From the IMG/VR virus record IMGVR_UViG_3300033075_001761: DNA of 28,568 nt. One strand, given 5' to 3'. Numbering within the stretch: the first letter of the stretch is position 1; every line of letters starts with the position of its first letter. The position numbers and the translations under genes were made by a program. Source of the DNA: a virus. Its lineage: Duplodnaviria > Heunggongvirae > Uroviricota > Caudoviricetes. The notes below the pieces were generated by a model that was not told where the DNA came from, did no database searches, and saw only the letters and a program-made list of their open reading frames with translations. Shown one piece after another: positions 3,376 to 28,376 of this stretch.

Positions 3376-5001
3376 GTGGAATACATGAGTTTTGCTTCAA
3401 ATTCTCTCAGATTGATCCGTTCGTTTTTTGACAAACAGAACAAATATAATGAGCCATACGATCCTTTTGAGACCAATAGGCTTTCAAATATGTACCAATG
3501 GGGAGTTGGGCCAGAAACTCATTCTTCTTTGAATGTTTGGAAAGATACACAGCTATCTCAAGATTTGCAGTCTAGATATGTAGATTACACAGAGATGCAA
3601 TATTACCCAGAAGTAGGAGCTGCGCTAGAGATTTTTTCTGATGAGGCAACAAGGATTGATACTTTAAAAAACAGATCGATTTGGGTAGAGAGCGAAAATG
3701 AGTCTTTGCAAGAAGCTTTGAACTACACAATGCACAATATCCTAAGGGTTGAGTCATCGATTTGGGACACTGTTTATACAGTATGCGCCATGGGCGATGC
3801 CTATCAAGAATTGATTGTAGAAGACAGAATAGGTGTTGTTAAGCTTATTGATCATCCGGCGCCTCTTGTTCGCGTAATGGCGTCCAGAGACGGCGTTGTT
3901 TATGGGTATCTAAGAGACGATACAATGGCATTTGACGGAATTTCTACAGAGTCTTTTTTGAAGAGGATGAATGGAGAATATACTGGACCAAATGATTCTT
4001 TAAAAACATTTGAGCCATGGGAAATTGCACATTTTAAGATTCAGACAGGAAATGTTGATCAGGTGTATGGGCGGTCAATTGTAGACCCAGCTAGATATGC
4101 TTGGAAGCGTCTTACAATGATTGAAGATGCTATGGTTTTGTTCAAGCTTACGCGGAGTCCACAAAGGTATGTTTTTTATGTAGACGTAGGGGATATCCCT
4201 CCAAACGAAGCTAGAGCGACTCTTGAAAAAGTTAAGCATGATTTTAAAAAACAAAAAGTGTTCGATAGTTCGGGCCAGCTTTCCAGCAAGGCAACGATCC
4301 TTTCTCAAACAGATGATTTCTTTATTGCCAAAAGAAAAGGAGAGAGAACAAGCGAAATTGATATTTTGGCAGGACTTGATGGCCAGTCCGTTGATGATGC
4401 CGAGTATTTCCGTAGTAAGCTTATTTCTGCTTTAAAGATTCCAAAAGCGTATCTTGGGTATGACGAAACTGTTTCCAGGAGCAACATCGGACAGCAAGAT
4501 ATCCGATTGGCAAAAACGGTTATGCGTATCCAACGGGTTATTAAAGAAGGATGGAGACATATCCTTCAAATCGATTTGGCAGCAAAAAACGTAGACCCTG
4601 ATAAAGTAAGTTTTGAAATTAAGATGGCAGTTCCGAGCGGAGCTCTTGAAATAGCCCAAATTGAAGTTGAGAAAGCCAAGGTCGATTTGGCAGCGCAGTA
4701 TCAATCGCAAAATTTTTCCGAGCATTTTATTTGGAGTAAGATCCTTGGCGTTTCTGACGAGGACATCCTTAAGATCAGAGGCCAAAGGGCTTTGGAGTCC
4801 GCTGGCGGAGATGCTACGCAACAACCTGAAGCCACTAGCCAACCCGTTGAGTCTAGAAGCCAGTCAAAAAAAGAACTCGAATTGCAGCAGCAAATTACGG
4901 AAAACATGGAAAAAGGGACCGACGAGTTGCATTCAAGACTTAGAGAACTTCGCGGATTAGTGAACGAAATGCGCCATGGACTTAGAAAAAAGTCTAAGTG
5001 A
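3376..5001 (+). CDS. gp20: Portal protein, T4 gp20-like
   Basis: YTEMQYYPEVGAALE and LTMIEDAMVLFKLTRSPQRYVFYVDVGDIP match gp20-family motifs (LEDA.VIYR..RAPERR.FY.DVG); FFIAKRKGE..SEIDILAG. Start may be ATG 3385. Confidence 0.92.
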   Translation: MEYMSFASNSLRLIRSFFDKQNKYNEPYDPFETNRLSNMYQWGVGPETHSSLNVWKDTQLSQDLQSRYVDYTEMQYYPEVGAALEIFSDEATRIDTLKNRSIWVESENESLQEALNYTMHNILRVESSIWDTVYTVCAMGDAYQELIVEDRIGVVKLIDHPAPLVRVMASRDGVVYGYLRDDTMAFDGISTESFLKRMNGEYTGPNDSLKTFEPWEIAHFKIQTGNVDQVYGRSIVDPARYAWKRLTMIEDAMVLFKLTRSPQRYVFYVDVGDIPPNEARATLEKVKHDFKKQKVFDSSGQLSSKATILSQTDDFFIAKRKGERTSEIDILAGLDGQSVDDAEYFRSKLISALKIPKAYLGYDETVSRSNIGQQDIRLAKTVMRIQRVIKEGWRHILQIDLAAKNVDPDKVSFEIKMAVPSGALEIAQIEVEKAKVDLAAQYQSQNFSEHFIWSKILGVSDEDILKIRGQRALESAGGDATQQPEATSQPVESRSQSKKELELQQQITENMEKGTDELHSRLRELRGLVNEMRHGLRKKSK

Positions 5002-5007
5002 TTAGAC
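4992..5007. repeat. Palindrome copy 1: GTCTAA-GTGA-TTAGAC
   Basis: Exact half-sites; spans the portal stop codon; centre reads TCAC on the minus strand. Confidence 0.85.
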
Positions 5008-5020
5008 AAAAGGAGAGATT

Positions 5021-5341
5021 ATGACTGTAGTTCGGAATCCAATGAATCCAAATTTTTTTGTAGAATCTAAAGAAGCCATCATTCCAATTGGTCCTTACGA
5101 GGTTCAATATGAGATTGACGGAAATAAAATTAAAGAAAAAGTTTTCGTGTTAGTCAAAAAGATACCAGACGCTCCTTCTGGAGAGCCGCCAGAGGATTCT
5201 CCTGTTGAAATCATAGAAATTCATGATTTCAACGGAAAAAGGCATGAACAAGAAGACGAAATTATTGGCGCTCTTTGGGAAGATCCTAAGTTCGGGCTGT
5301 TTGCTTTAGATGCTTTAGATAAAGATCTTGATGGGGTATGA
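5021..5341 (+). CDS. Hypothetical acidic protein (106 aa)
   Basis: AGGAG Shine-Dalgarno before ATG; co-oriented after portal. Confidence 0.75.
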   Translation: MTVVRNPMNPNFFVESKEAIIPIGPYEVQYEIDGNKIKEKVFVLVKKIPDAPSGEPPEDSPVEIIEIHDFNGKRHEQEDEIIGALWEDPKFGLFALDALDKDLDGV

Positions 5342-5374
5342 TTTTACTAAATTAAATATGTGAGGGATTTGTTT

Positions 5375-8300
5375 ATGATTAAGCAGTTTTCGCGTTTAAC
5401 CACTTTGGCCGAAGACCTTCAAGAGCTTGGCATTGTGTCAAAAGACATTGGCTTTGGCTTTTCAGTAAATGAAAACGGAGAAGTTGTTGACATGGCTGTT
5501 CAGCATAAAGTTGAGCAAGCAAAGCTTTGTGAACAAAAAAGAGCAGAATCTATTAAAGCAATTTTTGAATCTACGCCAAAGCATTTCCGTTTTGAAAAGA
5601 AAGACGGAACTCATCAGGTTATCGTTGAAAACGATGAAGGTGATATTGAAGCAATTGTTCTTGAACAAACAAGCCAAGAGCGCCTTGAAAAGCTCCAAGC
5701 AAAAGTCCTTGTAGAGAGCGTTAAAGCAGAATCTACTTTAACAGAGCAAAAAAAAACTGACTCAGAAGAAGATTATGAGTCTGATACAGGAATCGAAGAA
5801 GGGCTTGCCAGGGTCCGCTTGAAGAGAATGACACCTGCGGCAAGGGCTAAAGCGCGACGTTCTTACAGGGCTAAGAAAAGCGTAATTAAGCGTGCAAGGA
5901 AGAAGGTTCGTCGTACATCTAAGTTTAAACGCCGTTCAAAGCTTCTTAAGCGTTTGAAGAGAGGGAAGTCGGCAGGTCCTCGGCGTCGTTTCATACTTAA
6001 AATGGGAATTGAGCAGGCGTCTAATTTGCTAGAGCAAACAAAGAGTTTTGGCTTTTTGATGGAAGCTAAAGAAGTTCAGTTTGCAGATCTTTTGGAAGGC
6101 ATTAAAGAGGCTTCTCTTTCTTTGGCAGATGCTTTGGATGAAGCTGACGCATTCATGATTACCGTAGACGATCTTGATACAGATCAAGGCGAAGAAGGAT
6201 ATGATTGGATTGATGCAAATCAAGACGGAGAGTATGAGCCAGAAGAACAGGAAGACGAAGAAGAGTGCGAAGATTGTGATGATGAGTGCAAATGGCTTGA
6301 CGTATGTGAGTCCAAGGAACTTAGAAGGCTTGCAGAAGATGCCGAGGCGGCATTCAAAGATCTAAGCAAAGGAATTAACACACCAGAAGAGATGAAAAAA
6401 ATCATCACTGCTATGGTCCAATATCTTGGCGGAGCCTTGGAGACATATACGGCTCTTGCACAGGAAATTAAAGATTACGTTGGAAAAACAGAAGAGCCCG
6501 CGATGACAGAAGGAGAGGTTAAGTCTCCTAAAGTTGAAGCAGAACAGGTTGGAGAAGGTGCGCCAAAAGAAGTTGAGCAATCTGTTAAACCTGAAAAAGT
6601 AGAAGCTCCAGTGCTTGGGAAAGATTCTAAGCTTGATGGAGTTGAACAAAAAGTAGTTGCTTCAGCAGAGCATGGAAAAGAAGTTGGAACGACTTCCGAG
6701 CTAGAGAAAGAACTGCCGATTACAGAGTCCGCTTCCAAGAAAAAAGAAGAATGGATGATTATTGATTGGGCTTCTAACGTAATGTTTAATGGTAAAAAAT
6801 GGCCTTCTTTTGATGATGCCGAAGAATTCCTTGCTGAATTTCTTGATGAGAAATACGAAGAAGATCGTGGAGAATACGACATTATACCTGTAGGTTCGGT
6901 TAAGAATGTTCGTCATGGCAATTATATTGATCCTAAAGATCCTCGTTCTGGAACAAAGAAAGTTGTTGTTAAAGAATCGAAGGGATATAAAAATTTGGAT
7001 AAGTTTTTCGATGCTTATTTGAAACATCTAGAAGCATCTATTGAAAAAACCCCAGAGAAGTACGGATATCCTAAAGAGAAGGCAAAGTCTTTTGTAGAAA
7101 AAGTGAAAAAGTCTGTTTCTGAAATCGGTATTCAAGGAGTGAATATCGATAGTGAAGCATTTAAAAAGACGGCAAAAGAGTTTGGAATTAAGCCAACGTA
7201 TAAAGCAATTGAAGAATTTCTTGTTGGCGCCATGAAAGAATCAAAGCTTTCACAGCGTATGAAGCTCAATGAGTCTGTATCTAAAAGTGTAGTTGATAGT
7301 TATTTAGAAACAGCACTTTGGTCGTCTACAGATGACGAAGGAGAGCCATTAGATAGTAAGTATTCAATTACGGATTTCAGTAAAAAATCTATAGAAAAAG
7401 CCGAAAAGGAACTGGCAGAGTTCTTTGAAATGGCAAGAGAAGAAGTTGGAACTGAGGCATGGGACGAACTTGAAGCAACTCAAGTAGCACATGACTTTTG
7501 GCTAACACGTAATGGCCATGGAGCTGGATTTTGGGATGGCGACTATGAAAAATCTGTTGGTCAAAAGCTAACAAAACTTTCAGAAAAGTTCCCAGAGCGT
7601 AATGTTTTTGCAGGAGATGATGAAGACGAACACATCGTTTATATTGAAGAATATCTTGGCAAAGGTGAGCCAAAACCAGAAGGCGAAAAGCCAGAGGCAG
7701 AGAAAATTGACGATAAAGAGCGCGTAGGAAAAAAGACTGAAAAATATACAACTCAAAAAGTGATTGAAGAGCAGGAAGAAGTAGAAGATCAATTTGAGAT
7801 TGTAGATATGGGATGGGATAACATTTCTTATTTTCCAGGATTTGGAACTCACGGAACAAAGTTCGACATCGCTGTCTACGATGTTGGCGGAAGCGCAGAG
7901 GATGCGGCAGAACAGTTGATGCAACGAGTTTGGGAAACAGAAGCTTCCGACGAAGTTAAAGAATCCATTGTGGCCGAGCTTAAGGATTTAATTAAAAAAG
8001 CTGGAACCAAGGCCAAAGAAACAAGCCTTGTTGGAGTTCAGGGAAGTTTTTCTGTTGCAGGTAAAGAGCTTCATTTGAATGAAGTAGAAGCTACAGACTA
8101 TGGAGAGTATGGAGTCTCTTCAAAAATTGAAATTGAGAAAGTAGGCGATAATCTAGAATTTAAAGCAATTGCGCCAGATCATTTAAGCGCCGCAGAAGAT
8201 CTTGAAGCTGAAATAAAGAGCCAAGGGTATTCGTTGAGCGAAGAAGATTCCGAGGCAATCTTTAAGCTGGCCAACAGGCATCAGGACAACCAAGAATGGT

Positions 8301-9211
8301 ATTATCACATTGGATTTAGAGCCAAAGAAGAAGAGCCTACAAAACCATCTGGAAAGACTGAAGAAAAAAAAGAGTTGTGGAAGATGACTAAAGCCGAGTA
8401 TGAAAAACAGCATGGAAAGCCAAAGGAAAACACAACGGTTACTGGAGGTTTTTCTGCACACAAGAGTGCTGTTGAGATTGCTAAAAACAAGGGATTGGAT
8501 GTGCCAAAAGAAGTGTTGGCAGATTATCCAGAATTAATGGAGGAATCCGTGGAAGAAGAAAAGATCGTATCAGAATTAGTAAAAAAGTTCGGAGAAGAAT
8601 TTAAAGAAGAGATTGAAGAGTCTTTTAAAGAAACTGGAACCAACAGTTTTGAATTTACTGCTGATGGCGATGACTATGAAGGCTATGACTCAGAAAAGTG
8701 GGCTGAAGATCGCGCAATTGATTATGTGCAAGAGATGTTAGAAGACGAGCCTTGGGAGATGTTCAGCAAAGATTTCTTGATGAGTCATGTTTATGTTGGT
8801 CCAACAGATATTCGGATCATGGCTTCCGAAGAAGCTGACAACGCTCTTGAAGGAATGAGTCCAGAAGATCTTGTTAAAGAATCTAGCGTTTCTGATGAAT
8901 GGGATGATGCTTTTGATAAAGATAATGAAAAAGAAATGGCTCGCCTTGAAAAGATCGCCGAAGAAGAGTTCATCGAGAAGAAATATGAAGAGGTTTCTGA
9001 AGCTTTAAAGAAAGACCCTGTAGGGTACTTTGAAGATATTGGTGGAGAAGAGATGGTTAAGGCAATGATTAAGAAGAATTTCCTAAGCATAGACGAGAAA
9101 AAAGCTGCTGAAGACGCAGTGCGAACAGATGGTTGGGTTCATTTTCTTAACAGATATGATTCTGAATACGAAGAGCTTCCAAGTGGAGCGGTGTACTTTC
9201 GTCAGGGATAA
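5375..9211 (+). CDS. Large acidic multidomain protein, putative prohead core / internal head polyprotein
   Basis: ~1280 aa, very E/D-rich, with a 60-aa K/R-rich segment recalling T4 gp68; sits where T4 has 67/68. ATG 5375 has a GAGGG SD (ORF track starts at GTG 5360). Function is inferred. Confidence 0.65.
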   Translation: MIKQFSRLTTLAEDLQELGIVSKDIGFGFSVNENGEVVDMAVQHKVEQAKLCEQKRAESIKAIFESTPKHFRFEKKDGTHQVIVENDEGDIEAIVLEQTSQERLEKLQAKVLVESVKAESTLTEQKKTDSEEDYESDTGIEEGLARVRLKRMTPAARAKARRSYRAKKSVIKRARKKVRRTSKFKRRSKLLKRLKRGKSAGPRRRFILKMGIEQASNLLEQTKSFGFLMEAKEVQFADLLEGIKEASLSLADALDEADAFMITVDDLDTDQGEEGYDWIDANQDGEYEPEEQEDEEECEDCDDECKWLDVCESKELRRLAEDAEAAFKDLSKGINTPEEMKKIITAMVQYLGGALETYTALAQEIKDYVGKTEEPAMTEGEVKSPKVEAEQVGEGAPKEVEQSVKPEKVEAPVLGKDSKLDGVEQKVVASAEHGKEVGTTSELEKELPITESASKKKEEWMIIDWASNVMFNGKKWPSFDDAEEFLAEFLDEKYEEDRGEYDIIPVGSVKNVRHGNYIDPKDPRSGTKKVVVKESKGYKNLDKFFDAYLKHLEASIEKTPEKYGYPKEKAKSFVEKVKKSVSEIGIQGVNIDSEAFKKTAKEFGIKPTYKAIEEFLVGAMKESKLSQRMKLNESVSKSVVDSYLETALWSSTDDEGEPLDSKYSITDFSKKSIEKAEKELAEFFEMAREEVGTEAWDELEATQVAHDFWLTRNGHGAGFWDGDYEKSVGQKLTKLSEKFPERNVFAGDDEDEHIVYIEEYLGKGEPKPEGEKPEAEKIDDKERVGKKTEKYTTQKVIEEQEEVEDQFEIVDMGWDNISYFPGFGTHGTKFDIAVYDVGGSAEDAAEQLMQRVWETEASDEVKESIVAELKDLIKKAGTKAKETSLVGVQGSFSVAGKELHLNEVEATDYGEYGVSSKIEIEKVGDNLEFKAIAPDHLSAAEDLEAEIKSQGYSLSEEDSEAIFKLANRHQDNQEWYYHIGFRAKEEEPTKPSGKTEEKKELWKMTKAEYEKQHGKPKENTTVTGGFSAHKSAVEIAKNKGLDVPKEVLADYPELMEESVEEEKIVSELVKKFGEEFKEEIEESFKETGTNSFEFTADGDDYEGYDSEKWAEDRAIDYVQEMLEDEPWEMFSKDFLMSHVYVGPTDIRIMASEEADNALEGMSPEDLVKESSVSDEWDDAFDKDNEKEMARLEKIAEEEFIEKKYEEVSEALKKDPVGYFEDIGGEEMVKAMIKKNFLSIDEKKAAEDAVRTDGWVHFLNRYDSEYEELPSGAVYFRQG

Positions 9212-9212
9212 A

Positions 9213-9228
9213 GTCTAATCAGTTAGAC
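9213..9228. repeat. Palindrome copy 2: GTCTAA-TCAG-TTAGAC
   Basis: Exact half-sites, one base after the TAA (9209-9211) of the large protein gene. Confidence 0.85.
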
Positions 9229-9233
9229 TAATG

Positions 9234-9266
9234 AGCCGCCGTCTTTTAAAGGATAGGCGGCTTTTT
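9234..9266 (+). terminator. Rho-independent terminator
   Basis: AGCCGCC ... GGCGGCT stem followed by a T run, just after the 5375-9211 gene. Confidence 0.8.
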
Positions 9267-9282
9267 AATTTCAAGGGTTTTT

Positions 9283-10023
9283 ATGAAAATAGCGTTGACT
9301 TCAGATCTGCACAGAGGTTTTACGCAAAAAACTCATATGATTCACAATACTTTTTTTAAGAAATTAGAAGAAGATAAGTCATGGGATGTTTTGTTGATTG
9401 CTGGAGATTTGGCAACAACTAAGCCAGAGCAAGTTGAAAGTCTTTTAAAAGCCATTAGAAATATCACATCAAGAGATATTGCTATAACACTTGGCAATCA
9501 CGACCATTGGGCCGAAAGTAAAGATAGAAAAAGTGTAGATTTGGTTATTCAATTGAAGACTATTCAAGGATACATAGAAAAATACAATTGCCATTATTTA
9601 TCAGGGAATCCTTACATAAAGGGAGATGTGGCTATTATTGGATGGGATGGATGGTACACACATGCGCCATACGTAAGAGGAACAAGAGACCATGAGATGA
9701 TGCCGTATTTTACAGAGGGCATAGAAACGGAAAGATGGCTTATAAAAAACGCTTATAAAGATGAATGTAGAGTTCTAGAAGAGATTACTTTGCACTGTGA
9801 TAAGAAAATCGTTCTTGTAAGCCATATGCCCATCATTAGTATTCCAAGCATAAGGCATGTAGGGACTGATATTCCTGTGCTTTGGGATGAGGTTAAAAAT
9901 AAGATTAAAGCCTACTGCTATGGGCACGTTCATAGAAAGAACGAAGAGATTCGGGATGGGGTAAGAGTTTATTCGGCAGATGTGGATTACGATAGGCCAG
10001 GAGCTATGTTTTTTGAAATTTAA
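9283..10023 (+). CDS. Calcineurin-like metallophosphoesterase
   Basis: Ordered motifs SDLH, AGD, GNHD, SH, GHVH. Confidence 0.9.
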   Translation: MKIALTSDLHRGFTQKTHMIHNTFFKKLEEDKSWDVLLIAGDLATTKPEQVESLLKAIRNITSRDIAITLGNHDHWAESKDRKSVDLVIQLKTIQGYIEKYNCHYLSGNPYIKGDVAIIGWDGWYTHAPYVRGTRDHEMMPYFTEGIETERWLIKNAYKDECRVLEEITLHCDKKIVLVSHMPIISIPSIRHVGTDIPVLWDEVKNKIKAYCYGHVHRKNEEIRDGVRVYSADVDYDRPGAMFFEI

Positions 10024-11132: not shown

Positions 11133-11253
11133 ATAAACCTCCTGTTCTAATAGCTATCGGCTGAAATATAGGTTTATCAAATAAAAAATGACGTAGTTTG
11201 TTATGCGCCCAGAATCATTAATGTATTCTTTGAATACTGATATGGAGGTTTGT

Positions 11254-11502
11254 GTGGAAAAAAATATCAATAACATCATAAAGTTTCCAGTAAAGAAAAA
11301 GTACGATGAAAAACAGACTCTTATGCTTGAGTTCTCTAATCGATTAGACAAAGAGGTTATTAGGGCTATGTTTGATCTTAAGCTAAGCCCTGAAGAGGTT
11401 GTGGCTATTTTGGCCAATAGGACAAGGGAAGCGGCTAATTCTTGTCTAGAGATTGAACGGATAAAAGAGTTTGCCGTTCGGCATATTCAGAAAGCTGGAT
11501 AG
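11254..11502 (+). CDS. Hypothetical protein (82 aa)
   Basis: GGAGG SD before GTG 11254 (track starts at 11203). 3' end overlaps the convergent ORF by 68 nt. Confidence 0.6.
   Translation: MEKNINNIIKFPVKKKYDEKQTLMLEFSNRLDKEVIRAMFDLKLSPEEVVAILANRTREAANSCLEIERIKEFAVRHIQKAG
11334..11349. repeat. Palindrome copy 3: CTCTAA-TCGA-TTAGAC
   Basis: One mismatch to consensus; inside the 11254-11502 ORF. Confidence 0.65.
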
Positions 11503-11950: not shown

Positions 11951-12884
11951 ACCTAGCTAGAACTTTAAATTCACGAAGGTTGCTGGCTCCTACGTAAGTG
12001 CATGCAGAGCGTATTGCTCCTTCAATTTCCTGAATGGCAACACTAAGATCTTTTAAATCTTTTCTTTTTGTAGAGTGAATTCCTTCATGGGTTTTATAGG
12101 TAGGAATTTTTGAGTTTTGCATTATAGAAGCGGAACCATAAAACATATCTTGATTGGCAGAAGCATTTGTTTTAGCGAGCATCCCACCAAGCATAACGAT
12201 ATCGGCATAAACAAGAGCCTTTGTAATATCTGCCGTTGTTTTGTGGCCGCCATCGCTTATTAGGTTTTTCTTGATTCCATATACATCAAAGAGATCTCTG
12301 GTTGCTTGGAGAAGATGGAATTGAGGGATTCCTACGCCAGTAACAGTTCTTGTTTGACAGACAGAGCCAGAACCAATTCCGAGCTTGATGTGTGTAATTT
12401 TTTCTTTATGAGAGCTGTTTAAGGATTGTAAGAATTCAAGGACAGAGCCAGGATCTCCAAAATTCCCAATCCACCAATTAAATTCAGGGAATTCCATCAT
12501 CATTGCTGAAAGCTTGTTAGCAATCCAAAGCTGGGCACAATGTGCTACATCTAAACACACGGTTTTTAGCTTAAATTCTCTTGCAAGTTCTAAAGCCCAT
12601 CTGTCATTGATTCCTATGGACTGGACAACGTTTGTTTGGAAGTTTGGTTGTTTAGAGCAATATTCTAAAATCATTCTTGCACCTTCTTTATAAAAGCGCG
12701 GTATACAAGCGAATGCACCATTTTTAATCATTCCAAGAGCCATATCTTCCCCAGTAACAGACTCCATATTGGCTGAAACAATAGGAAGTCCATCCAGAAC
12801 TACATCATTTCTTGATTTTAAGGATGCGTTTCTATTGAAGTTTGGAAGGATTAAAACGTCATCAAATGTAAGAAGTTTGTCCAT
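11895..12884 (-). CDS. IMP dehydrogenase / GMP reductase family enzyme, no CBS domains
   Basis: LTFDDVLILP, PIVSANM, LDVAH, catalytic loop KLGIGSGSVCQTR, ISDGG, VMLGGMLA, FYGSAS, IRSACTYVGA. ATG 12884 has a GGAG SD. Cannot distinguish GuaB from GuaC by eye. Confidence 0.9.
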   Translation of the reverse strand: MDKLLTFDDVLILPNFNRNASLKSRNDVVLDGLPIVSANMESVTGEDMALGMIKNGAFACIPRFYKEGARMILEYCSKQPNFQTNVVQSIGINDRWALELAREFKLKTVCLDVAHCAQLWIANKLSAMMMEFPEFNWWIGNFGDPGSVLEFLQSLNSSHKEKITHIKLGIGSGSVCQTRTVTGVGIPQFHLLQATRDLFDVYGIKKNLISDGGHKTTADITKALVYADIVMLGGMLAKTNASANQDMFYGSASIMQNSKIPTYKTHEGIHSTKRKDLKDLSVAIQEIEGAIRSACTYVGASNLREFKVLARFAEISDNAKHEGTPHFEW

Positions 12885-15392: not shown

Positions 15393-15645
15393 ATACCCAA
15401 AAACATTAAAAGATTTATATTTTGAAGATCAAAAAGTTATAAGTTTTGATTCAAGCAAAGATTTTGTAAGCGAAATTGCAAATGAGTGGAGTTTGTCTAG
15501 TGATTACGGAAGCAAAAGGTCATTAAGACAGGTTCTTGGGCTTGATTTTTCAGAATATGATGACTTGTTGAAAAATCGATTAAGCATTGTTCAATTGTAC
15601 AAAAAGTACACACAAGGAACAGAAAAGTTGGTAAGTAGTAAATAA
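15379..15645 (+). CDS. Hypothetical protein (88 aa)
   Basis: TTG start with GGAGG SD; overlaps upstream stop; its TAA overlaps the next ATG (TAATG). Confidence 0.65.
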   Translation: MIYPKYPKTLKDLYFEDQKVISFDSSKDFVSEIANEWSLSSDYGSKRSLRQVLGLDFSEYDDLLKNRLSIVQLYKKYTQGTEKLVSSK

Positions 15646-15887
15646 TGTTTAAGCGACGAAGCCATGGGTTAACAGCAGAGCATAAATTAAAGCTAAAAGA
15701 AATTTTTGCCTATATGGAAAAACATAAGATCTATAAACATGTAGTTGCTCAACAGCTTGGGTTTAGTCAATCTGCCCTTTCTGGCTGGACTCATTACTAC
15801 TCTCCAAAACTTAAAAGCTTCCAAAAGCTTGAGTCTTGGTACGATGATTACAGGTCAAAATTAGACAAACCTAATCAAGAGGCATAA
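15645..15887 (+). CDS. XRE/Cro-like helix-turn-helix protein
   Basis: IYKHVVAQQLGFSQSALSGW fits the XRE HTH pattern (A..lG.S.s.lS.W); 80 aa, basic. Confidence 0.75.
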   Translation: MFKRRSHGLTAEHKLKLKEIFAYMEKHKIYKHVVAQQLGFSQSALSGWTHYYSPKLKSFQKLESWYDDYRSKLDKPNQEA

Positions 15888-15888: not shown

Positions 15889-15904
15889 GTCTAATCAATC
15901 AGAC
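15889..15904. repeat. Palindrome copy 4: GTCTAA-TCAA-TCAGAC
   Basis: One mismatch; one base after the HTH gene stop. ATAAAGTCTAATCA..AGACT context matches copy 2 at 20 of 22 bases. Confidence 0.8.
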
Positions 15905-19268: not shown

Positions 19269-21470
19269 TTGTACATTGATTGTGCTAGACGATCAATGAT
19301 ACGGAAATCTCCTCGATTAAACCAGGAGTTTTCAGTGAGTTCGCAAGCGCAAACAAGGGCCGAGCAAATATGGGCATCAATCAATAAGTGTTCTGACGAT
19401 GAAAGGTGGTATTTTTTCGGATATTTTTTTGGGGATGGAAATGTATATTGGTTGTCTGAAAATTCCGCAAGGGTATCGTTTACAATAGAAGATTCTCTTC
19501 TTGATAGATGGATTGAAGCCTACGGACCATGGGGAGTTTCTCCCTATAAAGGAAAGAACTACAAACAGGTTTATGCGAACTGCCTGGATTTAGCTAAATT
19601 TATTTCTTCAGAATTTGGCATTACAGGACCGAAGTCAGACATAATTTTTGTACCAGAAGAGCTAAAGCTTATAGAAAGAAAAGATGATTTCTATTCCTTT
19701 GTTAGAGGCTTGTTTGATAGTGATGGATTTGTATCTGAATATACGTATAAGAAAAGCATTATTCCAAGCTATAGTTTTGGGATTTCATCAAATTCTCAAT
19801 TAATTATGGATGGACTCAAAGAGGTTTTTGAAAGAGATGGGATATCCTGCGTTGTAAAGGACTCTGAAAAATGCAAGGTTATTTATATTCGCTCAATATC
19901 TAGCCAAAAAATATTAATGGAGAACCTTTATAAAAAAGGCTCTATTTTCTTGTCAAGAAAACATGAAAAACTTTCAGAAGCCGCAGCAAAGTCTAATCGA
20001 GTAGACGAATTTTGTGTTGTTTGTAAAGATGAACCACGTAAGTTTGGTCTTCTTGGATATAAATGTTTTCATAAACAAAAAAGATCTTATTGTACCTGCG
20101 GTGATAGGTCCGTAGGAAATGGGTATTGTTCAATGATGACTTCGTATTTGAAGCGAAGCGAACTCTATAAGTTCGTTCCTTTAAGGATATCAGAAGTCCA
20201 GTTTTCTAATGAATTTGAAACAAGAGACCACAAGAGAATTGAAAAGGCTTTAAGACAGTATTGTTTGTCTTTTTATTCGGCAAAGCATGAAGGGTTTAAG
20301 TCTACGGCAGAGTGGTATAAAGAAGATGGCCTAGATGCTTGGACTGCGTACCAGCAGTCGAGAAGTAGTTTTGACGTAAAGCCAGCGTCTTGGTTTCCTA
20401 TTAAGTCAATGGATATTTTGTTGGAAATTTCAGAGCAAAGAGTTGGAAACGTTGGAACTGTATTCGACCCGTTTGTAGGATGGGGTACTAGGCTTTCATC
20501 TAGCATTTTGTCTGGTAAAAAATATAAAGGATGGGACTTAAATAGATTTCTTATGCACGAACTAATGGCGTTGTTTGGCTCTAAAGCAAGCATTGATGTG
20601 CTGGATTCGTTTGATATTTCTAATGATGTTCCAGAATCAGATTGTGTTATTACATGCCCTCCATACTGGGAAGCTGAAGATTATAATTACAAGCACAAAG
20701 AAGTTTCTTATACTCAATTTTTAACGCATTTATCGAACCTTGCTTTTCGGTGTATTAAAAAATCTAAAATAGTAATTTTTGCTATGGATGATTTTTATTA
20801 TTCAGGGTCAAAATATAGTTTTATTGATGATTTTTCTAAAGTATTAAATTTTGCAGGATTTAAATTTGAAGTTATTAAGTTTTCTACAACGAAGAGGTCT
20901 TATTCAGAAGACTTGGAAAATCATGCATTTATTATTGAAGCGTCAAAACAAGAAAATCCAAGAATAATATATAGAGCTGCAAATGCTTTAAATATAGGAT
21001 TACTAAAGGACTTAGCAAAATCGGCAAGAGATAAAAAGAAAATAATTCATGGTCAAAAGCCTGAAAAAAAATGTTCTGTTTGCGGTAGTTTTGAAAATTA
21101 TGCCGCAAAAGATCTGTGTTTTAATCATTACACAGAAAAAAAAAGAGAAGAAAAGTCTATAATGAATGGTGTTGTTTTAAAGAAAAGACAACAAAAAAAG
21201 AAAACAGAAGCGCCTATAGAAATGGTCTTAAACAGCAAGCCATTAGAGGTTGTATTTACGTCAAAGAATGATGGAGACGGTATTTATGTAAGGAAGAATA
21301 TTCCAAGGCCATTTTGTCCAATATGCTATATGGATGGAGAAAGAATTGTTTTAGGTTATTTTTCAACAAGAGAAGAAGCGTTAAATTTCAGAAAAAAATT
21401 TATTTCTAAAGTTCTAAAAAGATGGTCTGAAGTTTTGGAAAACGAAAGCTCTGGAGAAGGAGCGTTATGA
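19269..21470 (+). CDS. Fusion: two-motif LAGLIDADG endonuclease domain, Cys clusters, SAM-dependent amino-methyltransferase domain, AP2-like C-terminus
   Basis: FFGYFFGDG and FVRGLFDSDG; CVVC..C, CTCG..C; motif I FDPFVGWGTR and motif IV TCPPY; CSVCG..CFNH; GIY..GERIVLGYFSTREEA. Start may be ATG 19296. Confidence 0.8.
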   Translation: MYIDCARRSMIRKSPRLNQEFSVSSQAQTRAEQIWASINKCSDDERWYFFGYFFGDGNVYWLSENSARVSFTIEDSLLDRWIEAYGPWGVSPYKGKNYKQVYANCLDLAKFISSEFGITGPKSDIIFVPEELKLIERKDDFYSFVRGLFDSDGFVSEYTYKKSIIPSYSFGISSNSQLIMDGLKEVFERDGISCVVKDSEKCKVIYIRSISSQKILMENLYKKGSIFLSRKHEKLSEAAAKSNRVDEFCVVCKDEPRKFGLLGYKCFHKQKRSYCTCGDRSVGNGYCSMMTSYLKRSELYKFVPLRISEVQFSNEFETRDHKRIEKALRQYCLSFYSAKHEGFKSTAEWYKEDGLDAWTAYQQSRSSFDVKPASWFPIKSMDILLEISEQRVGNVGTVFDPFVGWGTRLSSSILSGKKYKGWDLNRFLMHELMALFGSKASIDVLDSFDISNDVPESDCVITCPPYWEAEDYNYKHKEVSYTQFLTHLSNLAFRCIKKSKIVIFAMDDFYYSGSKYSFIDDFSKVLNFAGFKFEVIKFSTTKRSYSEDLENHAFIIEASKQENPRIIYRAANALNIGLLKDLAKSARDKKKIIHGQKPEKKCSVCGSFENYAAKDLCFNHYTEKKREEKSIMNGVVLKKRQQKKKTEAPIEMVLNSKPLEVVFTSKNDGDGIYVRKNIPRPFCPICYMDGERIVLGYFSTREEALNFRKKFISKVLKRWSEVLENESSGEGAL
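19991..20006. repeat. Palindrome copy 5: GTCTAA-TCGA-GTAGAC
   Basis: One mismatch; at the end of the LAGLIDADG domain. 19988-20010 matches 28328-28350 at 21 of 23 bases. Confidence 0.75.
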
Positions 21471-21793: not shown

Positions 21794-21800
21794 AAGCTGA

Positions 21801-21884
21801 GGAAGGGTATGCAAGTAGCTAAAGCAGGCAGACTGTAAATCTGTTCCTTCGGGTTCGTGGGCGCAAATCCCACCCCTTCCTCCA
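21801..21884 (+). tRNA. tRNA-Tyr(GTA), non-canonical D and T loops, CCA encoded
   Basis: GGAAGGG/CCCTTCC, TGC/GCA D stem, GCAGA-CTGTAAA-TCTGT, long variable arm with TTCG loop, GTGGG-CGCAAAT-CCCAC, U73, CCA. Confidence 0.88.
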
Positions 21885-22016
21885 AAAGATAAAACACGAT
21901 GATTTCGTTAATAAAAATATATGGCTTTAAAAGCATCTCTGATAGCCTCTGATAAACTTTGTGTTGACTTCTTAAAAGATAACCGAATATGCATATTATT
22001 TATTTTGGGTTGTTCT

Positions 22017-23192: not shown

Positions 23193-23236
23193 AAAACTTT
23201 TTTAAAAGTTATATTAGCTTTTGTACTTAAGGAGAG

Positions 23237-23839
23237 TTGTTGCGCATGATTTATGGTGTTGTTAGGAAGTTTGGGAATCCTATTGCTGGATACGTGACTT
23301 TATTCCAGTTCAGAGGGCATGCAGATAAAAGAGGCGTGTTTTTTGAGTCATGGAAGGAAGGCGCCATAAAAGAGCTAGATGGCATTAAATTTGTTCAGGA
23401 CAATCTTGTTCGCTCAAAGAAAGATGCTTTGAGGGGTTTGCATTACGGGCTTACAAGCCCTCAGGGTAAGCTTGTAACGTGTGTCTCTGGAGAGATTTAC
23501 GACGTTGTTGTAGACATTACCGTGGGCTCGCCTACCTATGGACTATGGACTTCCTTTGTTCTTAAGGAGGGCAGGTCTTTGTGGGTCCCTCCAGGGTTTG
23601 CCCATGGCTATTTGGCAAGGACCAATGCGGTTGTCCATTATCGGGTCACTGATGTTTATGACCCAAAAGATCAGATGAATTTGTCTTATTGTGACCCAGA
23701 TATTGGTATTTATTGGCCAGAGCCTTCGGAAGAAGATGTATGCTATTTGTTATCTACAAAGGACGAAGAGGCCGAGTGCTTATTTGAATTGGCTCAAGCA
23801 GGGAAACTCCCATATTCGTCTAATCAATTAGAATCTTAA
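23237..23839 (+). CDS. rmlC: dTDP-4-dehydrorhamnose 3,5-epimerase
   Basis: D.RG.FFESW, FVQDN, LRGLHY, QGKLV, G.I.DV.VD, LWVPPGFAHG, DPDIGI.WP. Exact start uncertain (23237-23246). Confidence 0.92.
   Translation: MLRMIYGVVRKFGNPIAGYVTLFQFRGHADKRGVFFESWKEGAIKELDGIKFVQDNLVRSKKDALRGLHYGLTSPQGKLVTCVSGEIYDVVVDITVGSPTYGLWTSFVLKEGRSLWVPPGFAHGYLARTNAVVHYRVTDVYDPKDQMNLSYCDPDIGIYWPEPSEEDVCYLLSTKDEEAECLFELAQAGKLPYSSNQLES
23818..23833. repeat. Palindrome copy 6: GTCTAA-TCAA-TTAGAA
   Basis: One mismatch; lies in the overlap of the convergent 3' ends of rmlC and the 23820-24011 gene. Confidence 0.75.
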
Positions 23840-24011
23840 AAAATGATTCTATAGACTTAAAAGAAATCCATGTGATTAAAAAACAAAGAAAACATCCAAT
23901 ATATAAGATTATAAAATGTTCATCTGGATGTTCAAACAAAAGATTAAACACAAAATAAAAAACAAACCCACTTATAATCCATGAAATTATATCTGTTATT
24001 TTTTTAATCAT
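23820..24011 (-). CDS. Small membrane protein (two hydrophobic helices)
   Basis: 63 aa, two hydrophobic stretches; overlaps upstream gene stop region. Confidence 0.6.
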   Translation of the reverse strand: MIKKITDIISWIISGFVFYFVFNLLFEHPDEHFIILYIGCFLCFLITWISFKSIESFFKILID

Positions 24012-24270
24012 TTTTGGTTGCAGATTTTTTTATTTTTTCTATCGCTTTGTCGGCATATTCAATTGCGTACAGCGCAGCGACAAAAGATGAAAATAATAAA
24101 ATAAAAAATACAACAAGAACAATAATTGAAAGATATAACCATAAAATTTTATAAAAACTCATTCCAAACATCCAAAGTATAAACACCATTGCCACAGCAA
24201 AATTTAAAGCAGGCTCAATTTTTTCTTTACAATCTGTATAAAGTTCTTCAAAAAGTTTAAAAATTCTCAT
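24004..24270 (-). CDS. Small membrane protein (two hydrophobic helices)
   Basis: 88 aa, long hydrophobic core; ATGA coupling to upstream gene. Confidence 0.65.
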   Translation of the reverse strand: MRIFKLFEELYTDCKEKIEPALNFAVAMVFILWMFGMSFYKILWLYLSIIVLVVFFILLFSSFVAALYAIEYADKAIEKIKKSATKND

Positions 24271-24473
24271 TGATTGCTCCTGTTGTTTGTAATTTTTTTA
24301 GCAAAGAAATAAATCATTTGTTTTGATTTATAATAAATTAAGTTTGAAATTATTATTAACGTTAACCCAAGGAAGACGAGCAAAAAATATTTTCCAATCA
24401 TTTCAAAGATTCCAGTTTGATAAACAAGTTTTAAAATAAATAGAATAAATGCCACAATTAAAGCTGATTTCAT
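24267..24473 (-). CDS. Small membrane protein (two hydrophobic helices)
   Basis: 68 aa; ATGA coupling to upstream gene. Confidence 0.65.
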   Translation of the reverse strand: MKSALIVAFILFILKLVYQTGIFEMIGKYFLLVFLGLTLIIISNLIYYKSKQMIYFFAKKITNNRSNQ

Positions 24474-24751
24474 TGTAGTTTCTCGCTCAGTTTTAGATTG
24501 AAATGGCTATGTCCTGGTTGGTTGATCTTTATTCCTCTTAGATACAGAGGCTTTAAAAACTTGTTCAAAGAGTGGAAATCGATAGTTCGTTCGCAAACAA
24601 AATTGTATTCGTCTTCTGTAAGTGTAACCAAGCTTACCGTTTCTATGTTGTCAGCCATCCAGAAGTCTCCATCCAAATAAACATGGAAGTTTTCTGCATG
24701 CTTTAAGATAAGAACAAGCACTGGCTTGTACATTTTTGACTCCTTAATCAA
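24470..24751 (-). CDS. Hypothetical protein (93 aa)
   Basis: Part of a chain of overlapping minus-strand genes. Confidence 0.7.
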   Translation of the reverse strand: MIKESKMYKPVLVLILKHAENFHVYLDGDFWMADNIETVSLVTLTEDEYNFVCERTIDFHSLNKFLKPLYLRGIKINQPGHSHFNLKLSEKLQ

Positions 24752-25019
24752 TGATGATTTCTTGCCCTTCGGCTTTTACTTTTTTAATCGTGGTTTTATT
24801 GATCATGCGGTAGCCGCCAGAGTCCATATCAAACACAACGAACAAGCCCTTTTCTTCAGGATCAAAAGCTAGTTCGCCGCCTTTTAGATGCTTCTTCACA
24901 TCGAACCTGCATTTCATTTCACGGAATGTTCCGTCTTTTTTGACGAACTCAACATAAAAGATTTTATTGGTCCCTCGTTGAGATTCGATTAACTTGGTTG
25001 CTTGTGCTATTTTTGTCAT
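24744..25019 (-). CDS. Small SH3-fold / WYL-like phage protein
   Basis: VEFVKKDGTFREMKC ... VFDMDSGGYRMIN resembles the F.KKDG..R.M pattern of phage WYL_2/DUF2693-like proteins (from memory); AAGGGGG SD. Confidence 0.65.
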   Translation of the reverse strand: MTKIAQATKLIESQRGTNKIFYVEFVKKDGTFREMKCRFDVKKHLKGGELAFDPEEKGLFVVFDMDSGGYRMINKTTIKKVKAEGQEIIID

Positions 25020-25106
25020 ATACCGATCCCCCTTAAAATACTTAACGGATGATTGGTTAGAAAACTTAGATTTTTTGTTTTAACAAATAAAAACAAGGAC
25101 TTACGC

Positions 25107-25499
25107 ATGATTGAGCAGTTTGCCGTAAAGGTTCCGGTTAGTATGTTTCCTAGCCAAGAAGAGGCTAAAAAGATTGGATTAATTCAAGACGGCGAAGAAT
25201 TCGAGTCATTATCAGTTAATACAGTGATTAAATATGAGATGGTTGTTAACTTGGCAAAATGGGGAATTGATGATGTTTTCTTTAGCGTTCCTGCGCAGGA
25301 AATAGAGGGGTATTTAAGTTATGTTTCTGAAAAAAATAAAGAACATGTTTTGAAAAGAGACGTAACAATTAAAATACCAGAAATCCCTGCTACAATAGAA
25401 AAAGAATATGGTGATGTTGCAGTGTTGGGCTTTGTACTATCAAGCGTTGAGTTTGATTATGGCGTTTGGAAAGCGGTTGTTAAAGCGGTTGGAGGTTAA
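25107..25499 (+). CDS. Hypothetical protein (130 aa)
   Basis: AAGGA SD before ATG 25107 (track starts 25053). Confidence 0.7.
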   Translation: MIEQFAVKVPVSMFPSQEEAKKIGLIQDGEEFESLSVNTVIKYEMVVNLAKWGIDDVFFSVPAQEIEGYLSYVSEKNKEHVLKRDVTIKIPEIPATIEKEYGDVAVLGFVLSSVEFDYGVWKAVVKAVGG

Positions 25500-25500
25500 A

Positions 25501-25998
25501 ATGGCTTTTAAAGATCTTGTAAAACAGTTTTGCGATGGGGAGCTTATCAAAGAAGGTTTTATGCAATTCGAGGCTTCAAAGAACGAATTGCCAAAGCTTG
25601 ATCCAGACGCTCCACAAAATGATGCAACGCCAATGAAGATGACTTCTCGCGGCATGGAAGCAAAGCCTGGAGAGCATCAAACGCCAAGAGAACGTGCTGC
25701 CGACATGGAAAAAGAAGAGATGGCTTCTTCTGGAAGCTCTGAACAACAACCCATTATGGCGTCTATGTCTGTTCTTAGGCATATGCTTGGATTCATAAAA
25801 GAAGACGAAGCTTTGGGAGCTTTTGTAGGTAAAGTTATGTCGTCTATGGCTGAGCTTGAGGCCGCTATGATGGGAGAGTCTGTCGGTGAGCCAGAAACCT
25901 CAAAAGAAGAGCCTTCTGAGCCAGAAGAAACTGCAACAAAAAATGTTGCAACATCAGAAGTTGTAACAGAACCAGAAGTGAAGACTGTACCAAAATAA
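25501..25998 (+). CDS. Acidic hypothetical protein (165 aa)
   Basis: GGAGG SD before ATG 25501; E/P/S-rich. Confidence 0.75.
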   Translation: MAFKDLVKQFCDGELIKEGFMQFEASKNELPKLDPDAPQNDATPMKMTSRGMEAKPGEHQTPRERAADMEKEEMASSGSSEQQPIMASMSVLRHMLGFIKEDEALGAFVGKVMSSMAELEAAMMGESVGEPETSKEEPSEPEETATKNVATSEVVTEPEVKTVPK

Positions 25999-26010
25999 TA
26001 AGGGCATACC

Positions 26011-26724
26011 ATGAATCGAGAAGAAATCATTTCAATGATTAAGTCCGATCTTGGCGCTTCGGTCGTCAAGGTTGAATTGACTGATGACCAATACGACCAG
26101 CTTATCAAGAAAGCTAAAATGTGGTTTCAGTCTAGAAAAGGATTGATTGGATGCCATCACTTTTCAGTTATAGAAGGTGATCAAAGTTTTGATACGATTT
26201 CTGATTCATATAAAAATTTGGACGTAATTCTTCCTGGAACTTATAAATATGCAGATGCATTAGGTTGGTGTGGGCTTACGGATTTAATTCCGGCTTCTGG
26301 CCATTTTGGTAATTTGACACCCGGATACGTCACATTTGATGTGACCGGATATGTTCAGGTTATGCAGACTTTACAGCAACGCTCTCAGGTTCTTGGTCTT
26401 AACAAGTCATGGTTTGAAGAATGCGGAAAGATCTATCTTCATTCGACAACCAATGGTCAGGCTATGCTGGTTTATAAGAGAAAAAACTGGACTATTGAAG
26501 AATTGGCTGGAAGAGACGAGTGGATATTTTATAGGTATTGTTTGGCTATTGCTAAAAGCATTATTGGAATGATTAGACGTAAATATAGCTCTTACCCTGC
26601 TGCTGGCGGACCAATGAGCATGGACGGAGCTGAAATGATTGCGGAGTCTAAAGAAGAGATTCTCGCGCTTGATGAAGAAATCTTTGGTTCACAGGGGAAT
26701 GCTGGTGGAATCCTTATTGGCTAA
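26011..26724 (+). CDS. gp13: Neck / head-completion protein, T4 gp13-like
   Basis: N-terminal IKSDLGASVVKVELTDDQYDQLI (gp13 pattern LGAP.I.VELT.DQ) and C-terminal YCLAIAK..IG.IR.KY...GG..MDG..M..E.KEEI. Confidence 0.85.
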   Translation: MNREEIISMIKSDLGASVVKVELTDDQYDQLIKKAKMWFQSRKGLIGCHHFSVIEGDQSFDTISDSYKNLDVILPGTYKYADALGWCGLTDLIPASGHFGNLTPGYVTFDVTGYVQVMQTLQQRSQVLGLNKSWFEECGKIYLHSTTNGQAMLVYKRKNWTIEELAGRDEWIFYRYCLAIAKSIIGMIRRKYSSYPAAGGPMSMDGAEMIAESKEEILALDEEIFGSQGNAGGILIG

Positions 26725-26968
26725 CATTACTGATGTAGAGTTTGATGAGATTCTTGAGGCTCGAAAAAAGCGCAAGAAGAAAATCAAGAAACAATTTTGT
26801 TATTTGTTTCCTCCTTTTTATGGGAAAGGAGACGGGAAGAGTGCGGCTACAGCACCTCCTAATTCGTCTCCTTCCGTTCCTGTAAGTAGTCCTGCATTTC
26901 CTGGTCCAGGAGGGATCAACTCTCCTGGAGTAGCTTCTGGTCCAAATTCAGGGATGGGACCTGCATAA
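26717..26968 (+). CDS. Small protein with basic patch and Pro/Ser/Gly tail
   Basis: Probable TTG 26717 start (GGTGGA upstream), 83 aa: ILEARKKRKKKIKK then low-complexity tail; TAATG coupling to the next gene. Confidence 0.55.
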   Translation: MANITDVEFDEILEARKKRKKKIKKQFCYLFPPFYGKGDGKSAATAPPNSSPSVPVSSPAFPGPGGINSPGVASGPNSGMGPA

Positions 26969-27564
26969 TGGCTGAACCTAAAAACCTAATGTCTAGGGAG
27001 CAAAGAATCCGAGAAAAGAATATTTTAAATCGAGCTGGAAAAGCATTGATTTTTAATGAGCCTAAAATCTTGGATTTAGTAATGAATCGTAAAGTCCCAA
27101 ATCAAATGCAACATTGCATAATTAAAGTGCAGAAGAAGATGGGTGGAACTGACAAAGAGGCTTTTGTAAGTGCCTTTAATATTTGCCAAGCCGTTTTCCA
27201 AAACTATGGATACCAATATCCAGATACAACAACGCTAACAAGTAAGGGCCTTCAAAATAACATGAGGCATAGGCGTGAGATCGGTAATTCAGCTAAGGAA
27301 TCAAGGTTCAGGCAGATGACGACCTGGTTTAAAAACGAAATGGTTGAGGCAGAAAGGCAAAAGAACGAGTCTTCTAAGCAGAAGGATAACGAAGCTGCCA
27401 TGAAAAAAGCTGAGGCAGCTAGAACTTCCGAAATCCAAAAGAAGCTAGATTCTGGCCAAAAAATAACTCAGAAAGAAAGAGAATCTCTAGTTAGAGCTAA
27501 GACTGATGAACTTAAAAATATAAACAATAAAATTGTTGCCAGGAAAACGACAAAAAAGCCGTAG
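26968..27564 (+). CDS. Basic hypothetical protein (198 aa)
   Basis: Long ORF coupled to upstream stop; K-rich helical C-terminus. Confidence 0.75.
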   Translation: MAEPKNLMSREQRIREKNILNRAGKALIFNEPKILDLVMNRKVPNQMQHCIIKVQKKMGGTDKEAFVSAFNICQAVFQNYGYQYPDTTTLTSKGLQNNMRHRREIGNSAKESRFRQMTTWFKNEMVEAERQKNESSKQKDNEAAMKKAEAARTSEIQKKLDSGQKITQKERESLVRAKTDELKNINNKIVARKTTKKP

Positions 27565-27653
27565 GCTTGCAACAATTAACTTATATTGTGAGTATGATAA
27601 ACTAACGATAGGTCTTAGTGGCTTAATATAAAAGAACTGCCGTGAGGAAGAAT

Positions 27654-28376
27654 ATGAATTTTACAGCTCCAAATATGGCTACGCTGGGCGGAACTATCCT
27701 GGCATCCGCTCGCGGCACTTGGGTTTATGATGAAGGCGAAAAAGGCCATTATGAGTTTTTTGGCCGAGAAAACTTTGCGTGGAAAAATGACGAGAAAACA
27801 AGGCGTGACCTAGGAATTAGTGAAGATGATTTGTTTGATTGTATCGAACAGGTTGAAGCCGAGTTGATGAGCCCTGAAAACCAAGAAGTTCGTTTCGGGA
27901 TGATGAATAAAGGTGGGTACAAAAACGTTGGTGCTATTTATACAAGCCGAACGAATCCAGAAATTATTTGTGTATACACGCCTACAAGTCTTGGAAGCAC
28001 ACCTAATGGCCTTCATTATGAAGATTGGAACGGTTATTTTGAGTGGTATTTTAAGGCACAGCCAAAGCAAGAAATAGATAATTTGGTTACGTTTTTAAAT
28101 ATGTTTGATACGGCTGTAGGAACTGAGGTTACAAAGCAGACTACAGTTTCTCCAGTTATGCTTCCTTCGTATGAAGAAGCAAATGAATTTTTTAGCATGA
28201 ACGATCTTCAAGAAAGCGACTTCTTTTTGTCCAGACTTTGGAATGTAAACAGCTCAAAGTTCATGGGACGAGGAACTAGAGAGCAGATGAAATCGGAATT
28301 GCTTTCTGAATGGAAAGGCTTTGTAGAAAAGTCTAATCAATTAGACGAATCTAAAAAAAAAAGAAGCATTCAATAG
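27654..28376 (+). CDS. Hypothetical protein, possibly extended by a frameshift at an A10 run
   Basis: GAGG SD before ATG 27654; ends four codons after an A10 run (28353-28362). Confidence 0.75.
   Translation: MNFTAPNMATLGGTILASARGTWVYDEGEKGHYEFFGRENFAWKNDEKTRRDLGISEDDLFDCIEQVEAELMSPENQEVRFGMMNKGGYKNVGAIYTSRTNPEIICVYTPTSLGSTPNGLHYEDWNGYFEWYFKAQPKQEIDNLVTFLNMFDTAVGTEVTKQTTVSPVMLPSYEEANEFFSMNDLQESDFFLSRLWNVNSSKFMGRGTREQMKSELLSEWKGFVEKSNQLDESKKKRSIQ
28331..28346. repeat. Palindrome copy 7: GTCTAA-TCAA-TTAGAC
   Basis: Exact consensus; near the end of the 27654 gene, six bases before the A10 run. Confidence 0.85.

Follow-up and report, generated by a model that had tools for sequence, protein, structure and literature searches.

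In the decade since dispersed palindromes were recognised in phage genomes, no binder of them has, to our knowledge, been identified. In mycobacteriophages of Cluster A, another kind of repeated site, the stoperator (L5 gp71), occurs in dozens of short copies within intergenic gaps of co-directional operons and blocks elongating RNA polymerase; stoperators are asymmetric 13-mers, strictly oriented, and are bound by the temperate phage's own repressor. Cluster O mycobacteriophages carry more than 30 dispersed copies of a 17-bp dyad, TGTTCGG-N3-CCGAACA, for which binding of a dimeric regulator has been proposed and whose function is unknown (PMC4351075). Sites for host regulators have been described in phi29 and Nf (Spo0A boxes; PMC2731898) and in GIL01 (LexA boxes; PMC4551915). 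In Clostridium thermocellum, DNA affinity purification sequencing (DAP-seq) and electrophoretic mobility shift assays have shown that the BlaI paralogue BlaI_0696 binds inverted GTCTAT repeats that occur as a pair in front of its own operon (PMC8457756). Here we analyse a 16-bp palindrome, GTCTAA-N4-TTAGAC, that recurs in a 28,568-nt stretch of DNA (the window) from a large and uncultured tailed phage (Caudoviricetes), IMG/VR virus record IMGVR_UViG_3300033075_001761. The window is the minus strand of positions 12847–41414 of the 129,001-bp record (the contig), the completeness of which is estimated at about 67%.

As in Cluster O, a single short palindrome is dispersed over the genome, with many copies in short intergenic gaps and some within genes. 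Its sequence and host phylum are different, and whereas the Cluster O repeat is confined to one phage cluster, the palindrome described here is found in phages of unrelated families and is identical with an operator of host bacteria. The stoperator layout, an asymmetric site oriented with transcription, was not found: the site is a palindrome, and any polarity comes only from its two central bases. Phages phi29, Nf and GIL01 have, as this phage may have, no master repressor of their own and let host physiology gate the lytic programme through sites for host regulators; theirs are few and lie at key promoters or origins, whereas the sites of this phage blanket gene junctions. The operators of the BlaI/MecI/CopY family, which are read by a homodimeric winged-helix protein, resemble the phage sites in their 16-bp dyad, in their GTCTA...TAGAC half-sites and in the position of one dyad directly before a Shine–Dalgarno sequence. 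They differ in being paired in one promoter with variable spacers, while the 24 palindromes of the phage are near-perfect, stand alone at distances of 2 kb or more and lie on a contig that has no blaI gene.

The palindrome set of the phage contig

The seven copies that the original prediction had placed in the window are all present, three of them exact and four with one mismatch (Table 1), and the gaps between them, the AAA directly 5′ of five copies and the spacer beginning with TC on one strand are as it described. Dinucleotide shuffles of the window gave 0.00 exact copies and 0.07 copies at one mismatch or fewer; an eighth copy with two mismatches, at 6019, is at chance level (1.16 expected). 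On the contig, 22 copies were counted at one mismatch or fewer, compared with one for a reversed control pattern and with a mean of 0.9 and a maximum of 4 in codon-preserving shuffles. The total rises to 24 sites once Y and R (T/C and A/G) are permitted at positions 4 and 13. In a sense-strand alignment these sites have an A-rich 5′ flank, a T-rich 3′ flank and, in 20 of the 24, a centre that is TCGA or one transition away from it, so that the full consensus is a 22-bp palindrome, AAA-GTCTAATCRATTAGAC-TTT. The set is thus real and strongly non-random, and it is conserved in a close relative, as described below. A literature search for the 16-mer found no paper on it.

The sites lie at gene junctions. 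Eighteen of the 24 are within 35 nt of the end of an open reading frame (ORF) (16.5% expected; P = 4e-10), and 11 fall entirely within non-coding DNA, which makes up 6.7% of the contig. At nine sites the upstream stop codon lies from 10 nt inside the site to 2 nt before it, the next start codon following 13 to 85 nt or more downstream. This anchoring at gene ends is partly trivial, because the motif itself holds stop codons: it contains TAA, TAG and, in one orientation, TGA, and therefore closes two or three reading frames. For the window, the proposed distribution of five sites on or beside stop codons and two inside ORFs (11334 and 19991) holds. Nearly all ORFs of the contig are co-directional, and many sites are adjoined by T-runs. 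The sites had also been described as mostly about 4 kb apart. Their evenness stood up on the contig, with a coefficient of variation of the gaps of 0.43, compared with about 0.95 when positions or junctions are drawn at random (P < 1e-4); a strict period did not (Rayleigh P = 0.45). The smallest gap is 2,084 bp and many gaps are near 4 or 8 kb.

No close relative was found in public phage records or in IMG/VR by DNA, portal or capsid patterns. A close relative, contig L336, has 77–91% nucleotide identity and keeps all three homologous sites. Those at 19991 and 28331 are identical in both phages. At the end of rmlC the flanks of L336 have diverged and include an indel, the half-sites being intact and even perfect around a spacer TCGG instead of TCAA; judged from this alignment, the rmlC end carries a slight but distinct trace of selection acting on the half-sites. 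More distant capsid relatives (62–64% identity) are found in many assemblies, with a GC content of 51–66%, and one of them was binned with Luteolibacter. A relative in ERZ23498360 and ERZ23498361 shows 33% identity in its LAGLIDADG protein. The three that were read, over 14–21 kb of the same module, contain neither the motif nor any other repeated palindrome, which fits an adaptation to one host. DNA of the phage occurs in freshwater metagenome runs, and none of the data sets listed for it is of RNA. Contigs of four freshwater runs, compared with the window, yielded only fragments of related strains, short and of low depth, which did not suffice for a comparison of sites with flanks.

The palindrome in unrelated phages and in a Clostridial operator

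Exact-pattern scans found the palindrome as a repeated element on several contigs of genome and metagenome collections, and in IMG/VR only as single matches at chance level. Seven phi29-like contigs (L151, L180, L037, L135, L027, L034 and L167), which encode Phi29_MCP, the connector, the Gp16 ATPase and a protein-primed DNA polymerase B, carry the site roughly once per kb, in most cases at a gene boundary and frequently just ahead of a Shine–Dalgarno sequence. Some of them were binned with rumen or gut genomes of Lachnospiraceae, Ruminococcus or Oscillibacter. One, L151 (14,773 bp), has 13 sites and is a complete genome, since it has inverted terminal repeats. A further phage contig, the 11-kb fragment L218, encodes Cpn60 and has seven perfect copies flanked by A-runs and T-runs. 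Both in the phi29-like phages and in L218 the site recurs every 0.3–1.5 kb at gene starts. Searches with blastp and phmmer at permissive thresholds found no protein common to the phage under study and the phi29-like contigs or L218, and no DNA-binding domain was recognisable among the small proteins of the complete L151. Large IMG/VR contigs with a single exact match were also inspected; they carry no further copies, and their single matches are therefore regarded as chance.

The exact 16-mer is also present in five independent Clostridial loci (L028, L058, L145, L147 and L169), which share one arrangement: two dyads of the GTCTAA-N4-TTAGAC type lie between a TTGACA box and the Shine–Dalgarno sequence of a gene for 121–125 amino acids, followed by a larger gene, in promoters that have otherwise diverged. 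Pfam identifies Penicillinase_R (BlaI) and Peptidase_M56 (BlaR1) at these loci, and four of the BlaI proteins have in common the invariant recognition helix W-K-R-T-T-T-Y-T-V-I-K-R-L. More than 560 relatives were found in genome contigs, and the operator survey was made on the best 80 of these loci (L240–L319), all of them Clostridial. At least one GTCTAA-N4-(T/G)TAGAC site lies within 140 bp upstream in 50 of the 80 loci, and 35 have twin sites, at about −51 and −25, the second of which abuts the Shine–Dalgarno sequence, as in the phages; sites elsewhere in the locus were seen in only 2 of the 80. In BlaI paralogues with a different recognition helix the layout is the same but the dyads differ. 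The W-K-R-T-T-T-Y subfamily matches MecI and BlaI structures, including the DNA complexes 1SAX and 1XSD, and the logo built from 75 distinct host operators accommodates the phage consensus. From this comparison, GTCTAA-N4-(T/G)TAGAC is the twin operator of a widespread Clostridial blaI-blaR1 subfamily. What is new is the occurrence of one palindrome across unrelated phage families together with its identity with a host repressor operator.

Regarding the layout of these promoters, the TTGACA box is followed by a first dyad lying over the −10 region and then by the second dyad. Viral contigs that encode this BlaI subfamily were considered as well; they have only the autoregulatory pair and no dispersed sites.

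Sites of the window and further occurrences

The phage encodes a T4-type portal, a prohead protease, a Gp23 capsid protein, a large intein-bearing ORF, RmlC and an ORF combining LAGLIDADG and N6_N4 methylase domains, and it has one tRNA-Asp. The sites of the window are collected in Table 1.

Table 1. Copies of the palindrome in the 28,568-nt window, with their match to GTCTAA-N4-TTAGAC and their surroundings (aa, amino acids; HTH, helix-turn-helix).
Site	Match	Spacer	Gene context	Flanking sequence
4992..5007	exact	GTGA	portal stop TGA (4999-5001) within spacer; ATG of next gene at 5021, 13 nt past site	A-run 5′; Shine–Dalgarno sequence of next gene directly after
9213..9228	exact	TCAG	stop of 1283-aa ORF 1 nt before	GC-rich inverted repeat and T-run downstream, about 9233-9266
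11334..11349	one mismatch (C at position 1)	TCGA	within small minus-strand ORF 11154-11417	
15889..15904	one mismatch (C at position 12)		stop of 80-aa HTH-like ORF (15645-15887) 1 nt before	T-run after
19991..20006	one mismatch (G at position 11)		in frame (S-N-R-V-D) in LAGLIDADG/N6_N4-methylase ORF 19269-21470	
23818..23833	one mismatch (A at position 16)		last codons of rmlC (23237-23839), convergent junction; rmlC stop 3 nt after site	
28331..28346	exact	TCAA	30 nt upstream of stop of 244-aa ORF 27642-28376	

Upstream of the portal gene, a large ORF at 21-2750 that is truncated by the 5′ end of the window encodes an intein splicing domain that includes an HTH_28 segment; in relatives (L339 and the P0005 contig of a more distant relative) it is instead the portal gene that has an intein. 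The T4 late-promoter octamer TATAAATA is upstream of no gene on the whole contig, and sigma-70-like promoters are rarer on it than in shuffles. Both were considered as an explanation of the sites and discarded, neither being associated with them.

Some observations concern the other phages. L151 (1-14773) has no GATC (49.8 expected) and no ATCGAT, and all of its 13 palindromes have a TTGA/TCAA centre. In L218 (900-4650), several palindromes precede a repeated leader, about 35 nt long and devoid of a Shine–Dalgarno sequence, that leads into small genes in cassette-like units.

The palindrome was also found in bacterial genomes. As a singleton it occurs 82 times in 596 Gb, compared with about 280 expected at uniform composition, in keeping with chance, and the neighbouring genes are unrelated. 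A universal bacterial site was rejected: many singletons lie within longer natural hairpins, which is an ascertainment effect because the query is itself palindromic. Several genomes hold multiple copies. Bacteroidota have arrays of 8–10 GTCYAA-N4-TTRGAC units with a period of 22–23 bp (L100:6309-6540, L136:6345-6640 and L181:5438-5690), those of L136 and L181 being upstream of a gene for a secreted protein of 143 amino acids, and 29 sites, spread over 10 or more loci, were counted in one Prevotella genome. A Myxococcota-like genome with a GC content of 64–68% has the AT-rich perfect 16-mer in four exact copies, distributed over four contigs (L045, L050, L064 and L067), some copies being flanked by A-runs and T-runs. 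The Patescibacteria genome G006 (L232–L238) has ten copies, all intergenic, compared with two in the control; they adjoin clpB-like, parA, scpB, ligA and methylpurine-glycosylase genes. The multi-copy loci of the Myxococcota-like and Bacteroidota genomes showed no regulator gene next to the sites, and for G006, too, no regulator could be linked with them.

Putative binder, proposed roadblock function and alternatives

The way in which the sites vary bears on the level at which they are read. Single-arm changes in the variant sites of this phage are never compensated. In L151, the half-sites GTCTAA and GTCCAA combine into T/T, T/C hybrid and C/C sites at 3:6:4, matching independence; the hybrids face either way relative to transcription, and on the sense strand they produce C-A mismatches as frequently as G-U pairs. 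RNA hairpins at the sites have a folding energy of only −1.5 to −7.8 kcal/mol, and mismatched copies lose the hairpin (−1.5 and −3.2 kcal/mol). A terminator scan listed none of the sites, which do not combine the stable GC-rich stem and U-tract of an intrinsic terminator. Since the half-sites vary independently and the hairpins are weak, selection would act on double-stranded DNA, and this pattern favours a putative symmetric protein on duplex DNA over a reading at the RNA level. We consider it improbable that the sites are instead RNA hairpins with a 6–9-bp stem and a UCRA loop, located at cistron ends and read by an RNA-binding protein or RNase for processing, 3′-end protection or weak termination. 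Many sites do come directly after a stop codon and have a T-run behind them, conservation extends to the loop-like centre, TCAA exceeds TTGA on the sense strand by 27:11 in the pooled phages (P = 0.014), and the phi29-like contigs sometimes build the motif into a real terminator stem. However, the orientation bias in this phage alone is 12:6 and not significant, and the stop codons in two or three frames of the motif push it to gene ends by themselves.

That the palindromes are binding sites for a dimeric protein was the core of the original prediction and is its best-supported part, in view of the independent half-sites, the weak hairpins, the conservation in L336 and the match with the BlaI operator; of the functions offered there, namely roadblocks, genome-organising sites and nuclease or methylase marks, the first is the preferred candidate here. 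The binders it had suggested, namely the 80-residue HTH protein, the LAGLIDADG-methylase fusion and the HTH segment of the intein, found no support: the same palindrome is present in phages that share no protein with this one, one of them a complete 14.8-kb genome, and the 80-residue protein has no homologue. We tentatively propose, with a little less than even confidence, that the sites are docking sites for a dimeric repressor that is not encoded on the sampled 129 kb, that is probably a BlaI-like protein of the host and that acts through roadblocks. A search with the BlaI hidden Markov model gave nothing, and no Penicillinase_R was found in the phage contig, the phi29-like contigs or L218; any BlaI-like binder of these sampled contigs would therefore have to be host-derived. 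According to this proposal, a two-fold symmetric, homodimeric host protein would dock on the double-stranded palindromes, the BlaI/MecI/CopY winged-helix repressors being the closest identifiable class. With one site per junction, sites at least 2 kb apart and co-directional genes, the bound dimers would be roadblocks for RNA polymerase: the repressor would occupy one site at each junction and block elongating or re-initiating polymerase, and the T-runs beside many sites would help to release stalled complexes. Inactivation of the repressor, which for BlaI proceeds through proteolysis triggered by BlaR1, would lift this "stoperator"-like brake genome-wide at once.

Several observations weigh against a host BlaI-like repressor. 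The sites of the phage are solitary and not twin, the smallest gap exceeding 2 kb, and no sigma-70-like −35 box was found upstream of them. Their centre is near-perfect (TCGA or one transition off), whereas host operators have a variable spacer and often a GTAGAC right half; the binder may thus read the whole 16–22 bp and be a different protein. A matching BlaI with its operator was found in only one of the three bins that hold phi29-like contigs, the Ruminococcus bin. The phage comes from freshwater samples, whereas the BlaI-subfamily loci retrieved are from gut or rumen Clostridia, and the absence of Shine–Dalgarno sequences from the leaders of L218 suggests a different host phylum. The Bacteroidota arrays and the multi-copy sets of one Patescibacteria genome and of the Myxococcota-like genome have no BlaI nearby. 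Moreover, as the contig is about two thirds complete, a phage-encoded binder could lie in the missing third. As for the host itself, GMP-reductase patterns, used for host inference, found no relative, and RmlC was discarded as a host pointer, its identity of up to 47% in Bacillota being uninformative.

A dimeric regulator encoded by the phage and timing its expression, be it an ORFan, the 80-residue HTH-like protein near 15889 or the product of a gene in the unsampled third, appears to us unlikely. Such a regulator would be akin to the one proposed for the Cluster O dyads and to the repressor demonstrated at Cluster A stoperators. In addition to the incompleteness of the contig, it is consistent with the position of the HTH-like ORF, which ends 1 nt before a site, with the many ORFs that have no known family, with the restriction of the motif within the capsid clade to this phage and its close relative, and with a palindrome centre that is more constrained than in host BlaI operators. 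It has to be set against three unrelated phage lineages with an identical 16-mer and no common protein at permissive thresholds, against the complete L151 and its lack of a recognisable DNA-binding domain among small proteins, and against the 80-residue protein, for which no homologue was found in 5.8 billion proteins. There is also a low probability that the sites organise the genome, in the manner of matS, parS or loop anchors, through a bridging protein that folds or segregates the phage chromosome. The strikingly even spacing, never below 2 kb and in many cases close to 4 or 8 kb, would agree with this role. A strict period is lacking, however, the phi29-like phages and L218 have sites every 0.3–1.5 kb at gene starts, which is better suited to gene control, and parS and matS cluster regionally, whereas the phage sites are spread evenly over the whole contig (ParB and MatP genes were not searched for).

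The sites are very improbable as docking sites of a Trp-repressor-family (TrpR) regulator from an ultra-small Patescibacteria host, a possibility suggested by the ten intergenic copies in G006 against two in the control and by palindromes that bracket patescibacterial TrpR-like genes. More than two copies occur in only one of 401 sampled Patescibacteria (the other 400 have 0–2), G006 gave no TrpR match, and the TrpR-like gene that was checked, in G007, is bracketed by a different palindrome. Shine–Dalgarno use is 39–65% in the phage compared with 9–26% at the G006 loci, and a T4-type phage of roughly 190 kb would presumably be physically awkward in an ultra-small cell. The BlaI subfamily gave two weak matches in the 301 Patescibacteria genomes searched. 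It is highly improbable, too, that the phage's own LAGLIDADG-methylase protein, or another nuclease or methylase, uses the sites as marks. The 22-bp palindrome with its 4-bp centre has the 9+4+9 layout of homodimeric LAGLIDADG targets, with a centre TCGA or ATCGAT; an ORF with LAGLIDADG_3 and N6_N4_Mtase lies in the window with a site inside it; and L151 avoids ATCGAT and has only the TTGA centre variant. Yet the motif-rich L151 has no LAGLIDADG-methylase gene, two dozen cleavable palindromes would be lethal unless protected, and TCGA is not avoided in this phage (observed/expected 1.05).

Returning to a host repressor, a wider proposal is that at least three unrelated lineages of lytic type (a T4-like phage, phi29-like podophages and a large phage with a chaperonin) have independently been seeded with the operator of a signal-cleavable host repressor of the BlaI/BlaR1 type. 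In this "repressor piracy" a phage would have a host-controlled brake over its whole genome without a repressor gene of its own; we regard it as rather doubtful. The motif links unrelated phages, a well-defined and very common family of host repressors, the activity of which is governed by a membrane sensor-protease, and putative conditional roadblocks at gene junctions. Should the binder be another protein, the motif would still be a clean bait to find it. Repressor piracy, if it occurs, would offer phages that are classed as virulent a general way into dormancy or carrier states, and envelope-stress signalling of the host could silence or release such phages of anaerobic Firmicutes and of freshwater bacteria. 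This would have a bearing on the persistence of phages in the gut, the rumen and lakes, and on the prediction of hosts from operator motifs.

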